From NCBI GenBank assembly GCA_965205165.1, contig OZ242037.1:1637520-1701519 (forward strand): a stretch of DNA of 64,000 bases, written 5' to 3'. Positions 13,046 through 24,006 of this stretch are shown in pieces. Below the pieces are notes generated by a model. That model was not told the origin of the DNA, searched no databases, and saw nothing but the letters and a program-made list of their open reading frames with translations. Each line of letters begins with the position of its first letter. Within the stretch, counting starts at the first letter, position 1. The translations under genes were made by a program, and so were the position numbers. The DNA comes from Dehalococcoidia bacterium. GTDB lineage: Bacteria; Chloroflexota; Dehalococcoidia; Bin125.

Positions 13046-13049
<4 letters not shown>
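12180..13049 (-). CDS. conserved hypothetical protein
   Basis: Starts MNGAAEP, overlapping the secA stop (ATGA). Contains [19 protein letters not shown] and FTYWLFRRR...ARVASDT; resembles a Dehalococcoidia-conserved family from memory, unverified. Confidence 0.8.
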
Positions 13050-15814
<2,765 letters not shown>

Positions 15815-15969
15815 CGCCCCGTCACCGAATCCTCGCCTGTCATAAGCGCGCACATGCCCCCACGATAGCGCGGAAAGCCGGAACGCGATCCCCGTCGGGA
15901 AGCCGCATCCGGCACGGGGAGCGCTATTGCGTCGCGCCGACCGCGCGCGGGCAATTCGGACGGCGCGGC

Positions 15970-18900
15970 CTACTGATCAAGGCCGAGCGCCCGGAGGATG
16001 GCTTTGTTGCCGCCGTGCACGGCGGGCTCGCGGCACCAGATTCCACGCAACTCCGCCATCGCCCGGGCAGCATCCGGATCGTCGCCCAAGCCGAGCATCT
16101 CCAAGACCGCGACGTCAATGCGGGCGCGGTGATCATCCCGGAAGGCGTATGAGCACGGTTCGAGCGGCAACTCGGCAAGTTCCGCATGCAGATCGGCGGC
16201 AGCGGCCCGGGCACCCGCGGCTGCGGGGCTGTCTGCCGGGAAGTCCGGGATCGGGAAGCCTCCGAGCGCGTTGACTTGCATGGTGGCCCGGCCCGCTTGC
16301 GTAGTCTGTGCGTAGCAGGAGCGCAACAGCAGGCCCAAGGTCGAATTGCACCAGATCGCCAACGCTGCTTTGACGCTTTCGTCCGCGTGGATCAGCGTGG
16401 TCCAAGCTCGTCCGCCCATCGCGGGCTGCACGGTTCGCGCCGCAGCGAGGGCTTGCGAGGTGAAGCGCAGGTTGCGCGAGATGAACAAGTCGCTCCGCTG
16501 TTCGAGCATCTGCCGGATCAGGGCGTCGTCGCTCGCGATCGGTTCGCCGCAGTGAGTGGGCTGCGCCAGCAGCGAAGTCTGCCTCTCCGCATCGGCTGCC
16601 CAGAGCGCCGGATGGACGCAATCAAATGCGTCGCCGATTGGATCGAAACGGAAGACGCCGCGTCCATCGCCCCCGGCCGGGTGCCCGATCAGATCGTGCG
16701 TTGGTCCGATCTCAACGACCTGATCAAGCGTCGTCAGCCCGATCTCGAGATCCCAGGTACGGCGCTCGCCCGGCCAATAGAGGCGGCCGGCAAGCAACTC
16801 TGTGGCAGCGGTGGCGAGATGGTAGTTGCGCATCCCCACCGCGAACCACGGGAAACCGGGTGCCGGCGAGCGCATGTGAGCCCAAGTGCTGACGCTGCGC
16901 CCGGCATCTTGGATTACGCCGCCGTTGAACTCGCCCGGATCGACCTGCTGCAGCAACTTCGCAGTCCAGAACGCCTCTGCAACGGTCGCTGGCGCACCGC
17001 GCACGTTGATCGAGAGCACTCTGCGCCGCTGCTGGCTCGCAGCATGGACTTTTCCGAACTGATATTCTGGGGGGGGGGGGGGGGGGGGTAGTAGCAGATT
17101 CTGAGGCTGATCGTTTAGTTGCGATCAACAGCATCTCGTTCATATGCGTATCGGCGGACATCATGTTGGTCTCGTCGCCCGTGAACGCTATCGCGGTCAC
17201 GTCGTGATACTCGCGCTCAATGTGCTCGCGGAACCCAGCCCAACTTTCGGCATGCGCAGCCGTGAGCGGCAAGACCGAGGCGAACACGCCGCCCGGCGCG
17301 AGCTTGCGGTCGGCCAGCGCCGAAAAGTCCGAACCGAGCCCGGCTTGACCGTCGGCAACGCGGTTGCCTGATGCGCGAAGCCGACGGCGTATCGCGCTGA
17401 GCCGGACCAACGAGCGGTCACGCTGATCGTCCGTGATGCCGGTGATATCGAACAATTTGCGGTCGCCCCGCGCCCGCGAATACGGCGGATTCTGGATGAC
17501 TAAATTCAAACTATCATCAGGCACGTAGATCATCGCCGGCTGCGCCTCGCCATCGGTCGCGCTGCGGACCTGCTCGCCGATGATATCCGTGACTTGCTCG
17601 CTCTCAAGCAGTTCGAGCGAACCCGTTTTTCCGCCTATCACCGGAACGGCCGCTATTCGGGTGTCGTGATATGCCGTGCCGATCTCCGCGCCCGACAGCC
17701 CCGCGGCCGTCATGTGCGTAGCCAGCGCATTGATGTCGAGTCCGGAGATCGAGCGTTCGAGCATTTGCGAGTGCAGCCCGTCGGCATCGCCGCCCGAGGC
17801 CTCGTGCCGCCGTCGCAGTTGGTGATAGACGGCGCGGAGCAACGCTCCGGTACCGCAAGCGAGATCGGCGACGTTCAGGGCCACTACTTCTTCAACGGAA
17901 GACCAGTCGTCCACCTTCAATCGTTCAACGGAGAGGCAAGCGAGCAATTCGGCCGTTTGCGGAAGCGTATAATGAGCGGCGGTCTCTTCGCGGTCGTCTA
18001 GCAGTTCGGGGAAAAGCTCACCCGCGAATTCGATTCGGTTGCCAAGCCGCAAGGCATCGATCTGCTCGGCGAGCCGCTGCAACTGCGTCAAAGCCTGTGC
18101 GCCGGCATGGGCCGGGAGGCCCACATTGAGGGCGCGCTTGGCGGGCGTGAAGATCGATCTGTAGTTGACCTCCAATATCTTGTCCCACTCCGCGATCAGC
18201 TCCGAGATCGAGATCGCATCGCCGATGCTTTCTTGGCGGATCGCCCGCGGTGACCGAAGCCCGTTCTCGCGGAGCACGGCGGACGCGGTGGCGAGTTGAT
18301 CGTGGAGCCTCAGCGACGTCAACCAGATGCAGCAGGCCATTCGGAGTCCCTGCTGTGGATCGCGCTGATCCAGCGTGCGCGCGATCCGGTCGGCCGTGTC
18401 GGTCCCCGTCAGGCTGCGCTGCAAGTCGGCCGCGATGCCGCGAATGCGCAGCGCCACGTTGCCCGCCGTCTGCGAAACGAGCTGCTGCGGGGCGACGGCG
18501 TATTCACAGAGCGTCGCAAGATCGTCCACCGAGGCCGAGATCGCGTGCGGATGTACCGGCCAGTACGTGATCGTCGAGGCGTCGATCTCCGGCTGGTCGA
18601 TCTCCTCGCCCGTGATGTTCACCGACAGGATGGCGCATCGCAAGGTCACGCCGTCAGGCTGCGCAAGTCGTTCGCGCAGCACCGCTGGCGACCATTCACG
18701 CACGCCGTCGGGCACGCCGACGGCGATCGCCGAACGGGCCCGCCGCGCGGTGCCGTCGACGAGCTTCCCCAGCCGCGACGCCGCGTCGCTGAATGCGGGA
18801 TCGCCGAACTCGACTTCGATGATGACCGGATGCGCGTCGCGCGACATCACCACGATGTCCGGGCGATCTTGCGGCGCTTCGGGGAGCATCTGCAGGCGTT

Positions 18901-18991
18901 CCGAGACGACCGCCCCCTCGGCGTGGCGCCATGCGGCCCGCCGGCGGCGCAGCGCATCCGCCAAGGCATCGTTGAATGTCTGCTCATGCAT
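15970..18991 (-). pseudogene. type IIG-like restriction-modification fusion (nuclease + N6-adenine MTase + specificity region), frameshifted at a poly-G/C tract
   Basis: ATG at 18991 (MHEQTFND). PD-(D/E)xK-like RPDIVV...IIEVE, motif I DLACGTG and motif IV NPPY. The frame breaks at G20 (17069-17088); the downstream frame 17070..15970 is open. Confidence 0.8.
17069..17088. repeat. G20 homopolymer (C20 on coding strand)
   Basis: Direct reading: ...gatattct G20 tagtagc... Confidence 0.95.
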
Positions 18992-19050: not shown

Positions 19051-21228
19051 CTACCGCGTCGGCCCGGCCGACGCCTCCAAGATCTCCGCCACGTCTAGGA
19101 CTTGGAGGCGCTCCTCGTCTTCTTTGTCCATTTGGACGGTGCCTACGCCGGAGTCGAACATCTGGATGCAGAAGGGGCAGGCGGTGCAGGCGGTTTCGGC
19201 GCCGGTGTTGATCGCTTCTTCGACGCGGACCTCGTTGACGCGGGACTTGCCTTGCTCCTCCATCCACATGTTGCCGCCGCCGGCGCCGCAGCAGAGGCCC
19301 TGCTCGCGGCTGCGCGGCATCTCGATGAGCGTCACGTTGGGCACCTGCTCGAGGATGCGGCGCGGCGCCTCGAAGATGTCGTTGTGCCGGCCGAGGTAGC
19401 AGGAGTCGTGGTAGGTGATCGTCTGCGGCTCCACCTCCTTGGCGGCGAGCTTGCCGTCGGCCAGCAGTTGTTCGAGCAGCTGCGTGTGGTGGATCACCTC
19501 GTAGTTGCCGCCCATGTCGGGGTACTCGTTGAGGAACGTGTTGAAGCAGTGCGGGCAGTGCGTGATGATCTTCTTCACGCCCGCCTCCTCGAACGTCGCG
19601 ACCAAGCCCTCGGCGAGGATTTGGTAGAGGTACTCGTGCCCCAGCCGGCGGGCCGGGTCGCCGTTGCAGGTTTCCATCCCCTTGAGCACGCCGAACGAGA
19701 CCCCGGCCTCGCGCAGCAGCGAGACGACCGAGCGCGTGATCGCCTGCGCCCTGTCCACGAACGCGCCCGTGCAGCCGACGAAGTAGAGGTACTCCTGCTC
19801 GCCCGTCCACTCGGGCACTTCGATCCCCTCCATCCACGACTCGCGCGTGTAGGGCGTGCCGCGCCACGGGTGCCCCTGCCGCTCCAGCGTCTCCAGCGTG
19901 CCCTGCACCGTGTCCGGCATCCGCGCCTCTTCCATCACCAGCGAGCGGCGCATGTCGACGATGGTCGGCACGTGCTCGATGAAGACCGGGCAGGCCTCGA
20001 CGCACGCCCCGCAGGTGCGGCAGGCCCAGAGCGACTCGTCCCGCACGACCTCGCCGACCAGCGCCGGCGCGTCGTCCAAGCCCGCGCCGAGCTCGTCGCC
20101 GCGGGCGAGGTTGGCGACCTTGGCCGAGCCGTAGTTGGTCGCGTAGGACTTGAGGTCCTGGATCACGTGCATCGGCGAGAGCGGCTGCCCCGCGATGTCG
20201 GCCGGGCAGTTGTCGGTGCAGCGCCCGCAGCGCACGCAGACGTCCAGCTCGAACAGCTGCTTCATCGAGAAGTGCTCCAGCTGGCTGACCCCGAAGTGCT
20301 CCTGCTCCTCGATGTTCTCGATCTTGTCCAGCTTGCCCGGCGCCGAGGTGCGCTTGAGGAAGGCGTTGGCCGGGGCCATCACGAGGTGGTTGATCTTCGA
20401 GTAGCCCAGCAGCGTCATCCAGCCCAGCGCCCCGATCATGTGGATCCACCAGAACGCCTTGTGGATGTCCAGCGCCGCGTCGATCCGCACGCCCGAGAAC
20501 ATCTTCGCCACCACCCAGCCGCCCGGCGACCAAGCCGACCACTCAGGGTTCACGTGGATCTCCGACGTGTGGATGCGCAGCCCCTCGACCAGGAAGCCCG
20601 TGATCAGCAGCGCCCCCAGCCCGCCGAGGATGGCCCAGTCCTCCCAAGTCGGCAGCCAGGCCGTGCGCGGCCGCACCCAGCGGTGCGCCACCGCCATCGC
20701 CACGCCGATGATCCCGATGATCCCGAACACGTCCGCCACCAGCGAGTAGCCGAGGTAGCGCGGCCCGACCAGGATGTCGACCGGCACGTAGTCGTCGATG
20801 GCGAGCAGCGCCGTCACGAGGAACAGCACGATCATCGAGCTCATGATGCAGAGGTGCATCACGCCCGAATACGGGTCGCGCAGCACCCGCTCCGTGCCCG
20901 CCCCGCCGCGCAGCACGCGCACGATCCGCTGCGGCAGATCGTCGAACGAGAAGTCGGGCCGCCCCAGCCGCCAGATGCGCGAGCGCCGCACCAGCCCGTA
21001 GACGATGATCCCGATCACGAACGGGAGCAGCATGTAGAGCACCCAGAAGTGGTCGATGTTGAAGAACAGCTCCCGGTGCGCCCCCGTCACCCGCACCGTC
21101 TCCGCCCCCGACACGAGCAGCAGCCCCCCCAGCGGCAGCCAAGCCGGGATCGCGAGCGCAGAGGCCCGCTTCCCCGCCGTCCGCGGATTCCCGTGCGCCG
21201 GCCGAAGTTGAGATCGCTGTTCGCTCAC
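19051..21228 (-). CDS. membrane-bound Fe-S oxidoreductase (FadF/HdrD-like: NarI-like TM region, 2x[4Fe-4S], CCG domains)
   Basis: CVRCGRCTDNCP, CRTCGACVEACP, ITYHDSCYLGR, CCGAGGG. GTG start at 21228 inferred. Confidence 0.9.
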   Translation of the reverse strand: MSEQRSQLRPAHGNPRTAGKRASALAIPAWLPLGGLLLVSGAETVRVTGAHRELFFNIDHFWVLYMLLPFVIGIIVYGLVRRSRIWRLGRPDFSFDDLPQRIVRVLRGGAGTERVLRDPYSGVMHLCIMSSMIVLFLVTALLAIDDYVPVDILVGPRYLGYSLVADVFGIIGIIGVAMAVAHRWVRPRTAWLPTWEDWAILGGLGALLITGFLVEGLRIHTSEIHVNPEWSAWSPGGWVVAKMFSGVRIDAALDIHKAFWWIHMIGALGWMTLLGYSKINHLVMAPANAFLKRTSAPGKLDKIENIEEQEHFGVSQLEHFSMKQLFELDVCVRCGRCTDNCPADIAGQPLSPMHVIQDLKSYATNYGSAKVANLARGDELGAGLDDAPALVGEVVRDESLWACRTCGACVEACPVFIEHVPTIVDMRRSLVMEEARMPDTVQGTLETLERQGHPWRGTPYTRESWMEGIEVPEWTGEQEYLYFVGCTGAFVDRAQAITRSVVSLLREAGVSFGVLKGMETCNGDPARRLGHEYLYQILAEGLVATFEEAGVKKIITHCPHCFNTFLNEYPDMGGNYEVIHHTQLLEQLLADGKLAAKEVEPQTITYHDSCYLGRHNDIFEAPRRILEQVPNVTLIEMPRSREQGLCCGAGGGNMWMEEQGKSRVNEVRVEEAINTGAETACTACPFCIQMFDSGVGTVQMDKEDEERLQVLDVAEILEASAGPTR

Positions 21229-21325
21229 GCTGACGCCCCTTCGCTCGCGCAGCAGGATAAGCCCACAACCGCCCTCGCCGCAGCCGCCGCACGGATGCGC
21301 TAGCCTAGACGGACGGGGGTGCGGG

Positions 21326-22441
21326 ATGGACGACAAGCGAGACGATGGTGCCGTTGCCCGCGAGCGGGCCGGGCACCTCAAGCACGCGACTGATCTGGCA
21401 CGCCGCCTCGAAGAGGTCCTCGAGCAGGCGGATGCCCTGAAGGAGACGGGGTTCACTGAAGTCCCATCCAGGATCGCGTTGGCAGCGAAGATCGCGGAGG
21501 AGGATGCGTCGGCGTTCTCCGGAAGGCCGCACCCGGGCCGGGAAACTTACTTCCACCATCGTCCTGCTGATCGCCCCGTCATCCACCTGTTCGTTGACGA
21601 GTCCGGACTGGCTCGCGATGTGCGGAAGTCCAAGGGTAGCGGTGACCTCTTCGCATTGGGCGCGGTTGCAATTTCCAGCGACGCGCTCGAACAGTACTGG
21701 ACTCACGCCAACCAGCTCAAGCGGGAATTCTTCAAGGGCGGCCCCGATGTCATCCTGCATGCCTCGGATCTGCGGGAAGCTATAAAAGGCTCGGACGGGC
21801 GGGGACGCCAGTTCGCTCTCAACACTGACAAATCGTGGCCCAACTTGGTACGTGCGCTGGAAGATCTGGTGGAACAAACAGATTTCACAGCGTTCGGAAT
21901 CATCATTCAAAAATGGGTGTTCCACCAACAGTTCACAGTGCTTGGCCAAGATCCGTTTCTTCCACGCGAGACGTACGACTTAGCTCTGCATCTCCTCTTG
22001 GAACGGTTTGTCTCGTTCTTGGCGAGTGAGGACGATGCGCCGATCGGCTCAATTGCACTCGAACACCAAAGCCCGGGAGAGAATGCACGACACCAGCTGA
22101 GTATCGCCGAAACGATTGCCTACGGCACACGCTGGATTTCGCCAGAACCACTCCAACTCGACATCCAGCCCGGCGTAGAGTTCCTGAAGAAGCAGCCGTC
22201 GCATCCGCTTGAGCTGAGCGACATACTGGCAAACTTGCTCTATCAATTGGCCCGTGACGAGTTCGATCAGGCGCCCCGTTTGCAGCAAGGTGGCAGCTCG
22301 CGGCTCTGGGAAGCCTTCTGCCGCAAGTTCTATCAAGAGGACGATCTGCGTCAAGGCAAGTTCGGCCTGAAAGTGTTCCCAGCTGGCAGGCTTGATGGTT
22401 GGCTCAACGATTTTCGAGATAAGTGGCGTCGCAAGACCTGA
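21326..22441 (+). CDS. DUF3800-family (RNase H-like) protein, copy 1
   Basis: LFVDESG, HPLELSDILAN and C-terminal FGLKVFP typical of DUF3800; lower GC. Confidence 0.75.
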   Translation: MDDKRDDGAVARERAGHLKHATDLARRLEEVLEQADALKETGFTEVPSRIALAAKIAEEDASAFSGRPHPGRETYFHHRPADRPVIHLFVDESGLARDVRKSKGSGDLFALGAVAISSDALEQYWTHANQLKREFFKGGPDVILHASDLREAIKGSDGRGRQFALNTDKSWPNLVRALEDLVEQTDFTAFGIIIQKWVFHQQFTVLGQDPFLPRETYDLALHLLLERFVSFLASEDDAPIGSIALEHQSPGENARHQLSIAETIAYGTRWISPEPLQLDIQPGVEFLKKQPSHPLELSDILANLLYQLARDEFDQAPRLQQGGSSRLWEAFCRKFYQEDDLRQGKFGLKVFPAGRLDGWLNDFRDKWRRKT

Positions 22442-22516
22442 CCGGCTTGATCGCGAGGAGGTCGCTGATGCATACGACAAGATCGATGCGAGAACTAGTC
22501 TAGGAGAGATTTAGAC

Positions 22517-22741
22517 ATGGCATCTCTTGACGCGTGGATGTGGCTCATCTTTGGGATTCTATTCTTAGTGCTTGATGTAACATACATCCGCGAGCTGCCG
22601 ATCCTGAACCATCGCTTGGAGCTGTATTGGCGCGGCCGCACATACCGACCCCACCTAGGCACCATCAGCGCCGTTCTGCTCGGAATTCTCGGCATCATCG
22701 GCGTCATATTCGCGCTGCTCGCAGTAATCTCGCCCTACTAG
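22517..22741 (+). CDS. small two-TM membrane protein
   Basis: AGGAG RBS upstream and two hydrophobic segments in 74 aa. Confidence 0.65.
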   Translation: MASLDAWMWLIFGILFLVLDVTYIRELPILNHRLELYWRGRTYRPHLGTISAVLLGILGIIGVIFALLAVISPY

Positions 22742-22885
22742 GCAAAACAAGGCCGTGCGTCTGCCACTTCTCCCGTGGCGACATCCGCCACGAGCCATCC
22801 CCATTCAACGCGGAGCATTGTCGCAAGAGTCCCCGCAGCGTCACTGTCGGTTTGCAGGTTGGCGACGATGGCGTAAGATGGCCTG

Positions 22886-23965
22886 ATGCCTGACAATCAG
22901 CCCCACGGTGGCGATCCCGACGGCCGGCTTCTAGCGGCTAGGCAAGCGCAGAACTTGGCCGAGGCTGGACGGATCGCCGAAGTGCTCCATCTGCTCTTGC
23001 GACGTGCAGATGTCTCCGAAGAACTTCCGATGGGAGATGTGCTGGCGGGCATCAAGCGCCTGGAAGCGGCGAGCCTGCGCAGAGCACATGGACAGATTGG
23101 CGGGCGTCGCCGTCTCAAGCGCCGTGGTGGATCGGGGAATCCGTTACGCGACAACCTGCCCCGCAACCACCTGTTCATTGATGAGTCTGGGCTTCCAGAT
23201 GGAGCCGCAACAAATCAGGATGTGTTCGCCTTGGGCGCGATCTCAATGAGCCCAGAGCAGATGGCGAACTACATCAGCGCTGCCGACCAACTGAAACGCA
23301 AATTCTTTGGAGACATTTCAGCAACGTTCCATGCGCGCGATCTTTCGCGTGGCACAGGTCGCTTCGGATTTGAGCGTGATGGCATGAAGCGCGAGCGCTT
23401 TCAAGTTGCCGTAGGTGAACTTATCCAAGACAGCGCCTTTACCGCGTTCGGCATCGGGATCAGAAAGCGGGCGTACGCACGAGAGTTCAAGGATGCAGGC
23501 ATTGATCCTTACCTGCCTACGAACGTCTACTCCCTTGCGATTATGCTCTTGCTTGAACGCTATGTGGATTACCTGTGGGCGGAAGAGAACCAACCTCTCG
23601 GCGAGCTCACATTTGAAGCGCAGGGACCTCGGGAGGATGTTCAGCACCAAGCCTTTATCGCGGACACCATCCTGAACGGCACGCAGTGGGTTTCGGGGGC
23701 GGCGTTTCAGAGCCACCTGCTTCCCGGTGCTTCCTTCTTGCCGAAATCCGGGTCCCATCCGCTTGAATTGAGCGATTTGCTGGCGTATGACTTGCATCAG
23801 TGGATTCGCTCCGGGTGTGCAGGAGCGCCGGGATACTGGAGGATCTGGACTGAAAAATTCTATGCGCGGGAAGACCTGCGGATGGGGAGATTCGGACTGA
23901 AGATATTTCCCGATAGCGATATCCGAGATCGCATAGAGGAGCATCGCGATCGGCTGCGCCAATAG
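22886..23965 (+). CDS. DUF3800-family protein, copy 2
   Basis: LFIDESG, HPLELSDLLAY, FGLKIFP; clear paralog of 21326..22441. Confidence 0.75.
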   Translation: MPDNQPHGGDPDGRLLAARQAQNLAEAGRIAEVLHLLLRRADVSEELPMGDVLAGIKRLEAASLRRAHGQIGGRRRLKRRGGSGNPLRDNLPRNHLFIDESGLPDGAATNQDVFALGAISMSPEQMANYISAADQLKRKFFGDISATFHARDLSRGTGRFGFERDGMKRERFQVAVGELIQDSAFTAFGIGIRKRAYAREFKDAGIDPYLPTNVYSLAIMLLLERYVDYLWAEENQPLGELTFEAQGPREDVQHQAFIADTILNGTQWVSGAAFQSHLLPGASFLPKSGSHPLELSDLLAYDLHQWIRSGCAGAPGYWRIWTEKFYAREDLRMGRFGLKIFPDSDIRDRIEEHRDRLRQ

Positions 23966-24006
23966 CCCTCCGGTCGCGGCACAACCACTGCTCGGCTGCG
24001 TGGACA

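Follow-up and report, generated by a model that had tools for sequence, protein, structure and literature searches.

Restriction-modification (R-M) genes that are switched on and off by phase variation are known almost only from cultured animal pathogens. In the phasevarions of Haemophilus, Neisseria and Helicobacter, repeats within the phase-variable genes mod (Type III) and hsd (Type I) toggle genome-wide methylation, and in these pathogens the repeats are mostly tetra- or pentanucleotides or short poly-G tracts. The described system closest to the one reported here is cj0031 of Campylobacter jejuni NCTC11168, a CjeNIII-type Type IIG gene that, in the account given in PMC4889913, is split by a G9 tract at position 2573 of 3732 bp, and for which the same account gives experimental evidence of ON/OFF switching, of the methylated motif and of phage restriction. 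At the level of whole genomes, the sections of the literature drawn on here describe 29 poly-G/C contingency loci with tracts of seven or more in C. jejuni (PMC4965091), a modal poly-G length of nine in that species (PMC3401435) and 29 tract-associated coding regions in Helicobacter canadensis (PMC2823697). Here we describe a gene with a tract of 20 C in a 64-kb stretch of DNA (the window) from an uncultured, high-GC Chloroflexota sponge symbiont. The window covers positions 1637520-1701519 of genome G000, which is a single 2.85-Mb contig of 69.4% GC. We consider it likely that the gene is a solitary, slipped-strand phase-variable R-M enzyme of Type IIG/IIL layout in which the C20 tract serves as a hypermutable simple-sequence repeat; this would be a known kind of switch, as in cj0031, in a new lineage.

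The gene, its tract and the predicted parts of its product are placed as follows, in window coordinates.

15970..18991, minus strand: whole gene, a predicted single-chain R-M-type enzyme of about 1006 amino acids (aa), in two open frames joined by a shift of -1, +2 or -4 in the tract

17069..17088, minus strand: C20 homopolymer (G20 on the plus strand), the putative slippage tract at the junction of the methyltransferase domain with the target-recognition domain (TRD); when in frame, it would code for a brief linker of poly-proline

16724..16726, minus strand: premature stop in the assembled 20-C frame; the OFF product has 755 aa and no TRD

18488..18991, minus strand: N-terminal domain, residues 1-168, PD-(D/E)xK-like with an alpha-beta-beta-beta-alpha-beta order, from the secondary structure of the model (predicted local distance difference test, pLDDT, >90)

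18809..18859, minus strand: putative nuclease motif D45 ... E59-x-E61, from alignment column counts, with Glu where Lys would be

18002..18487, minus strand: predicted helical domain, residues ~169-330, like the N-terminal helical domains of HsdM, MmeI and PglX

17090..18001, minus strand: predicted gamma-class N6-adenine methyltransferase domain, residues ~331-634 (~315-641 in the structural model), from fold matches and invariant motifs

17846-17866 and 17480-17491, minus strand: motif I (DLACGTG) and motif IV (NPPY), respectively, both before the tract

15970..17067, minus strand: predicted TRD, 365 aa followed by a stop and not in frame in the assembly, from fold matches and the ratio of nonsynonymous to synonymous substitution rates (dN/dS)

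From its ATG at 18991, the gene extends over about 3 kb of the minus strand to a full-length stop at 15970-15972. With the 20 C of the assembly, the frame that opens at this ATG stops at 16724-16726 after 755 codons, and the frame beyond the tract (15970-17067, minus strand) is open through 365 codons. Setting the tract in silico to 16, 19 or 22 C gives a single frame of 1005, 1006 or 1007 aa, respectively, that ends at 15970. In the mechanism that we propose, slipped-strand mispairing during replication would alter the length of the C tract. At 16, 19 or 22 C, the TRD would be fused in frame through a short poly-proline linker and the gene would be ON; at other lengths, translation would stop 114 codons later, the DNA-recognition module would be absent and the gene would be OFF, as in the assembled state. 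A population could then mix cells with and without this methylation/restriction activity, as a form of defence and/or of epigenetic bet-hedging. This reading predicts switching at a high rate within the lineage, and we infer that the ON protein would methylate and cut DNA and would play such a role in the cell.

The layout of the encoded protein, as modelled, is that of a single-chain Type IIG/IIL enzyme. The 641-aa part before the tract was modelled with a pLDDT of 90.0 and a predicted template modelling score (pTM) of 0.91. Its methyltransferase domain matches CamA (Z 22.9, 262 residues aligned, root mean square deviation (rmsd) 3.1), M.TaqI (Z 18) and, by fold, PglX/BrxX (Z 19-21), and motifs I and IV are invariant in 81 family sequences, as are D376, C379-G382 and N501-P503. 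The structure matches to HsdM, PglX/BrxX, BsaXI, MmeI and LlaGI begin at model residue ~165-175. Across residues 1-641, the sole structure that aligns is DrdV, an enzyme of Type IIL (Z 20.0, 467 residues, rmsd 6.4); it is also the first Foldseek match (E 4e-10). Within the N-terminal domain, E3, P44-D45, E59-x-E61 and D69 are conserved, with D45 and E59 present in 81/81 sequences, and a language-model look-up of the N-terminal part led to the BpuSI_N and HSDR_N nuclease domains at lead-level scores only. We consider this domain putatively nuclease-like, with a predicted nuclease activity and without the canonical Lys. The 365-aa part after the tract was modelled with a pLDDT of 92.7. Its best match is the TRD of BpuSI (residues 559-875; Z 15.1, 242 aligned, rmsd 4.0), followed by M.BseCI (Z 11.3), CamA (11.1), PglX (10.2), HsdS (9.1 and 8.1) and MmeI (7.0), and in full-length relatives the same part is fused in frame. 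By its fold, the region after the tract is a TRD, which places the tract exactly at the junction of methyltransferase and TRD, so that the assembled state gives a protein without its recognition module.

These results bear on a preliminary description of this DNA, which had placed a C20 tract after the methyltransferase motifs and before a C-terminal region, with a stop at 16724 for 20 C, 1006 aa for 19 C and open frames for 16 or 22 C. All of these positions, frames and lengths were correct, and the frames were reproduced in silico. Its view of the C-terminal region as the probable specificity part agrees with the fold matches to TRDs, above all that of BpuSI, and its Type IIG reading is borne out by a methyltransferase domain that stands behind helical and nuclease-like domains and by the alignment to DrdV.

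The same fold matches allow another use of the two frames. The TRD could be translated separately, from a GTG at 17019, as a specificity subunit in the style of Type IIB or Type I systems, in which case the tract would toggle the architecture of the enzyme between fused and split and not its activity. An open reading frame of 349 aa (15970-17019) starts 49 nt after the tract, and the structures matched by the TRD model include S subunits that are separate proteins, those of BsaXI and of Type I enzymes. However, no ribosome-binding or promoter signal stands out, the upstream frame continues for ~290 nt past GTG 17019, and the tracts of relatives lie at several other positions inside domains, where a split would not yield two working parts. 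We regard a split enzyme as extremely unlikely.

The tract is real and heritable, not an artefact. It is the sole homopolymer of eight or more bases in the window, and G20 occurs in none of 100 shuffles of the window that preserve dinucleotides. In the genome of a sister species of the same genus (G001, our comparison partner for G000), an 82%-identical N-terminal part stands beside the same Fe-S gene and carries a G22 tract at the same junction. The flanks of that tract have diverged and the gene would be in frame at 20 or 23, which makes its G22 allele OFF. Another length is found in public run X12, from a different host organism and study, in which one 3817-nt contig at depth 166 spans the whole gene at ~96% identity, with 114 substitutions and gaps that total 4 bases. 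The sole length difference listed for this run is 4 bases left out at 17069, which gives G16, in frame by length count alone. The preliminary description had pointed to homologs as a place to look for the tract, and the sister species (same site) and run X12 (in frame) both have it. In addition, the database proteins P0004 and P0008, which are 97-98% identical, have different proline counts and different downstream frames, and of the database proteins at 82-98% identity, four extend across the tract, each of them out of frame.

The alternative of a sequencing error, raised in the same description, falls away for the tract itself and retains some force for its exact length, since 20 rests on the assembly and on one contig set that is probably from the same sample. 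In its remaining form, this alternative holds that the tract is real with a true modal length of 19 (or 22), that the gene is ON and that G20 is a homopolymer miscall. Long homopolymers are the main class of indel error in sequencing consensus. The sole independent check is a k-mer contig of run X9, and X9 contigs hold 98% of the window's words and may come from the source sample; in X11 and X1, contigs break off to the left and right of the tract and are uninformative on its length. Against a miscall, the X9 contig, at depth 109, bridges the tract without difference and reproduces G20 exactly. Miscalls would also need to affect 9/9 of the frame shifts seen at the DNA level in this family, in both directions, and the shorter, easier-to-call tracts of relatives (2-4 Pro codons) are out of frame as well. 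A length error thus appears quite unlikely, and the assembled gene is probably in its OFF state.

Both halves of the gene are under purifying selection despite the frame break. Between G000 and G001, Nei-Gojobori dN/dS is 0.126 (dS 1.01) for the N-terminal part and 0.199 (dS 0.84) for the TRD part, which is out of frame in both species and has neither a stop nor a second frameshift in 365-366 codons in either of them. A stop-free TRD part with a low dN/dS indicates that this is not a gene that has been dead since before the divergence. For the adjacent Fe-S gene, dS between the window and locus L159 of the sister species is 0.26 and aa identity is 97%. The dS of the R-M gene is 3-4 times as high, which indicates that its alleles either arose before the two species separated or were exchanged; the tract was retained in both.

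These observations also bear on the simplest reading of a broken frame, in which the gene is a decaying pseudogene that was frameshifted by chance in a mutable homopolymer and has no reversible function. Consistent with decay, the frame is broken not only in this gene but also in the sister species and the four spanning database proteins, and the gene's GC content at third codon positions (GC3) is 0.78, versus ~0.94 in neighbouring genes, as for acquired and maybe dispensable DNA. Decay does not agree with a TRD part that is intact at this level of divergence and dN/dS, with a tract that persisted in its place despite diverging flanks, with an in-frame allele in another population, or with linker repeats that evolved repeatedly. 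We judge a pseudogene very unlikely.

The recurrence of linker repeats was followed on a tree of the N-terminal part that holds 111 of 120 listed relatives plus the window protein, with 10 dropped because the cut-point motif was not found. Repeat signatures were read from the proteins, and among their carriers the DNA was seen for the window and for G001. A signature lies within 22 residues after the last methyltransferase motif in 18 of the 111 proteins on the tree, in the form of Pro runs, Gly runs (P0095 and P0099) or Glu-Arg repeats (P0048). Mapped on the tree, the signature label requires at least 7 changes (gains or losses), 6 of them forced by well-supported branches, and repeats at the linker between methyltransferase and TRD would accordingly have arisen at least six times in the family.

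Among 77 representative loci read at the DNA level, 70 are in one frame, 1 has no match to the C-terminal part and 6 are shifted. L012 has a G14 at the linker, and L051, from Nitrosopumilus, has a G17 further on. Tracts with a frame change lie at other inter-domain sites in L168 (C14), L179 (C18), L186 (G18) and L198 (G15). The last of these is a second copy of the family in G000 (L198:2593-5434; 1074716-1077557), one base out of frame at a G15 inside the methyltransferase region. Restoring the frame requires -1 in 5/9 cases and +1 in 4/9, which argues against miscalling in one direction and against a single recoding event. Systematic homopolymer miscalling was rejected as the cause of the frame breaks for this reason.

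Several observations weigh against a phase-variable R-M enzyme. The putative nuclease motif lacks its canonical Lys, with Glu at this position (E61) in 64/81 sequences, Ser in 13/81 and Ala in 3/81. The parts of the window protein reach no curated Pfam or NCBIfam cut-off. MutS (MutS_V) and MutL domains are encoded in the genome, which sets this lineage apart from the hypermutator Campylobacter with its missing mismatch repair. For run X9, no within-sample length variant is listed among its assembled contigs, which drop minority variants, and the length of a 20-base homopolymer in an assembly may err by one. Finally, too many alleles are OFF: at the DNA level, 9/9 frame shifts located in or beside G/C runs within genes are out of frame, and 17/18 signature carriers end at the repeat, with one (P0067) that reads through. 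Under neutral switching, ~2/3 of alleles are expected to be OFF (~1/3 ON); the relatives are not independent, and we attach no significance figure to the excess. An excess of this kind implies that the OFF state is selected or that something else reads through the tract.

Reading through could take place at the RNA level. Slippage by RNA polymerase, or by tRNA-Pro (+1/-1) on consecutive CCC codons, would then supply some full-length enzyme whatever the DNA length, with the tract as a constant attenuator of a potentially self-toxic enzyme, and variation in DNA length would be incidental. Such recoding would reconcile the OFF excess with a TRD under purifying selection, and it would suit tracts of 14-23 nt, given that known phase-variable genes usually have far shorter ones, of G8-13. 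However, five cases need -1 to restore the frame and four need +1, so that no single event fits, and both an in-frame allele (G16) and an in-frame relative (P0067) exist. Moreover, it is chiefly on A/T runs that transcriptional slippage has been documented as efficient. We therefore consider recoding unlikely and retain slipped-strand phase variation at the DNA level as the likely explanation. A lack of mismatch repair, as in Campylobacter, was also considered as a cause of the tracts in G000 and was rejected, given the MutS_V and MutL domains; their presence may instead be a reason why the runs are longer than in Campylobacter.

The tract is part of a genome-wide pattern. G/C runs in G000 fall steeply with length (1042 of length 6, 274 of 7, 31 of 8 and 2 of 9) and beyond them a further 27 runs, 10-23 nt long, make up a separate population, where the decay of shorter runs predicts <1. 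For runs of at least 14, 19 are observed, versus 1.4 expected from independent, identically distributed (i.i.d.) bases or 0.09 from a Markov model; for runs of at least 20, 8 are observed in the 2.85-Mb genome, versus 0.0024 (i.i.d.) or 4e-5 (first-order Markov). No A/T run in G000 is longer than 8. Elsewhere in the taxonomic family of G000, 35/36 genomes have runs of at least 12, as do 12/24 genomes from other families of its class. Such runs are mostly few in each genome, and some of those in fragmented assemblies stand at contig ends and may be artefacts. A broader reading is that these uncultured sponge-symbiont Chloroflexota have a lineage-wide, selected system of hypermutation, in which dozens of G/C tracts of 10-23 nt per genome are kept through speciation and gate giant secreted fibre proteins through promoters and several methylases within genes, and in which the linker has been turned into a repeat at least six times in an enzyme family common to sponge symbionts of many phyla. 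We hold the case for and against this broader reading to be evenly balanced.

Two groups of these runs are associated with genes for secreted proteins, and the proteins of both groups have no Pfam domain.

62157, 285565, 753107, 1840906, 2261274 and 2391380 of G000 (loci L188, L189, L195, L203, L207 and L209): G16-23 runs of giant secreted proteins

692624, 1026099, 1030988, 1035767, 1040462 and 2795347 of G000 (loci L193, L196, L197 and L212): C11-14 promoter-like runs

Each of the six G16-23 runs falls either within the opening 43 codons of a gene for a secreted protein of 3800-5000 aa or ~53 nt upstream of its called start, and 4/6 have nearly identical flanks. These giant proteins have a signal peptide and a high content of Ala, Thr, Gly and Ser, and those inspected share the C-terminal motif LWNG..WI.Y...G.P.PGS. 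Each of the six C11-14 runs has a TTGAC[AT] hexamer 5-6 nt ahead of it and a TTCAAT/TGTAAG-like element behind it. The runs lie 36-72 nt upstream of the starts of six paralogous genes for secreted proteins of 1300-1550 aa, four of these genes in tandem. These sites look like promoters in which the run sets the length of the spacer.

Other runs in G000 lie in or near methylase genes, a phage gene and another giant gene. A G23 is found in a 456-aa gene (L190:3481-4851; G000 331074-332444), between HEAT repeats and an N6_N4 methylase domain and in frame as assembled, which makes this gene a second candidate phase-variable methylase. A C16 run stands 108 nt after the stop of an Eco57I-type methylase open reading frame (G000 582158-583774), and a C14 at G000 399825 lies ~100 nt upstream of a giant minus-strand gene. 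A prophage-like region also has a tract, with G15 at G000 739754-739768, 109 nt upstream of a phage terminase large-subunit gene. Two longer-unit repeats in contig C1 of G000 are candidates for slippage: the heptamer CGCCCGC, repeated 10 times at 2152274-2152343, and an octamer repeated 5 times at 725616-725655.

The enzyme belongs to a separate, uncurated sequence family that has the same architecture as Type IIG/IIL enzymes. The window protein gives no match at E 0.1 or better to PF20473 (MmeI_Mtase), PF07669 (Eco57I) or PF02384 (N6_Mtase), while among 42 relatives sub-threshold matches are found to PF20473 in 35 (best E 8.6e-6), to PF02384 in 23 and to PF07669 in 11. Its methylase matches in PADLOC are weak (MTase_II, 1.7e-7; PglX/BrxX, 1e-3), and a family profile run against PDB sequences matched the motif I region of PglX/BrxX only, also weakly (E 2e-4). 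A protein search returned 238 matches, in which full-length relatives measure 980-1020 aa, and at least 588 loci were confirmed among species-representative genomes, with 77 kept. In a scan of JGI metagenomes, the best 80 of 158 relatives were all at most 37% identical and of no use for tract comparison.

By their record titles, the 77 loci come mostly from metagenome-assembled genomes (MAGs) of Dehalococcoidia, Gammaproteobacteria, Rhodothermales, Poribacteria, Latescibacterota, Ca. Poriferisodalis and Limisphaerales, with one from Nitrosopumilus. Most of the MAG phyla that carry the enzyme family are of a kind known from sponges; the Nitrosopumilus archaeon, L051, is among the carriers, and it holds G17 and G18 runs. 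The public runs that hold this stretch are labelled as sponge or marine metagenome. The source lineage is host-associated, a sponge symbiont, and we found no report of phase variation in sponge symbionts or in this Chloroflexota lineage in the full-text literature searched, in keeping with the earlier suggestion that the lineage is new for such switching. Within the taxonomic family of G000, the gene family is present in 23/36 other genomes with up to 11 matches per genome (7 in G000 itself), and it is strongly expanded in G007, G019 and G028.

In the window, the gene is flanked by secA (13046-15853) and by a gene for an Fe-S/CCG-domain protein (19051-21456), with valS further on. A scan for promoters and terminators around the gene gave counts not above those of shuffles. 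No flanking gene is common to more than 4 of the 77 family loci, which indicates a one-gene system. The resemblance to PglX/BrxX had raised bacteriophage exclusion (BREX) or another multi-gene defence system as a candidate, and this was rejected because the neighbours are housekeeping genes, none of them conserved across the family. Close by, two tandem DUF3800 genes (371 and 359 aa) lie at window positions 21326-23965, in an island of 57% GC (21500-24000) within a region of 68-70% GC.

In our view, the genome-wide and family-wide pattern is more interesting than the gene itself. If switching takes place, populations of sponge symbionts would be mosaics of methylation or defence states and of surface-protein states, which would bear on phage pressure, gene exchange and host recognition in a very old animal-microbe symbiosis. 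If the lineage-wide system is real, contingency loci, and possibly switching of the phasevarion type, would be a core strategy of mutualists of early-branching animals and not of pathogens only, and the OFF excess would mean that defence genes are mostly silent and ON in a minority of cells. Annotators of such genomes are cautioned not to dismiss 'frameshifted' methylase genes as pseudogenes. The analysis also flags an uncurated family of Type IIG-like proteins of ~1000 aa, whose many different TRDs may interest enzyme discovery.

Compared with enzymes of known structure, the window protein shares its predicted domain order and its size of ~1000 aa with DrdV and MmeI (Type IIL) and BpuSI (Type IIG; structures 7lo5, 5hr4 and 3s1s, respectively): an N-terminal nuclease (putative in the window protein), a helical spacer, a gamma N6-adenine methyltransferase with NPPY and a C-terminal TRD. 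Sequence identity to these known enzymes is low, 8-14% (MmeI 8-13%, BpuSI 11-14%, DrdV 8-13%), and the catalytic triad reads D...E-x-E here versus D...E-x-K in enzymes of the DrdV, MmeI and BpuSI type. We know of no slippage tract in DrdV, MmeI or BpuSI. The phasevarions are similar in that several methylase genes per genome may carry tracts, with four candidates in G000.

The closest likeness remains that to cj0031. As far as that gene is described in the source used here, both are single-polypeptide R-M genes in two frames, with a G/C run about two-thirds along (1903 of 3022 in our gene), conserved domains on both sides and a tract in only a subset of the alleles of the family. They differ in the tract, C20 versus G9, and in sequence family, and switching of our gene is predicted from its sequence. 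The hosts differ as well, as ours is an uncultured, high-GC Chloroflexota sponge symbiont that encodes MutS and MutL domains, unlike C. jejuni. At the scale of the genome, G000 resembles C. jejuni and H. canadensis in the number of its tracts (27 of at least 10 nt) and in their concentration in genes for surface or secreted proteins and for R-M enzymes. Unlike in those two species, the tracts of G000 measure 10-23 nt, they occur in a non-pathogenic symbiont of 69% GC, and many of them stand in promoter-like regions and not in reading frames.

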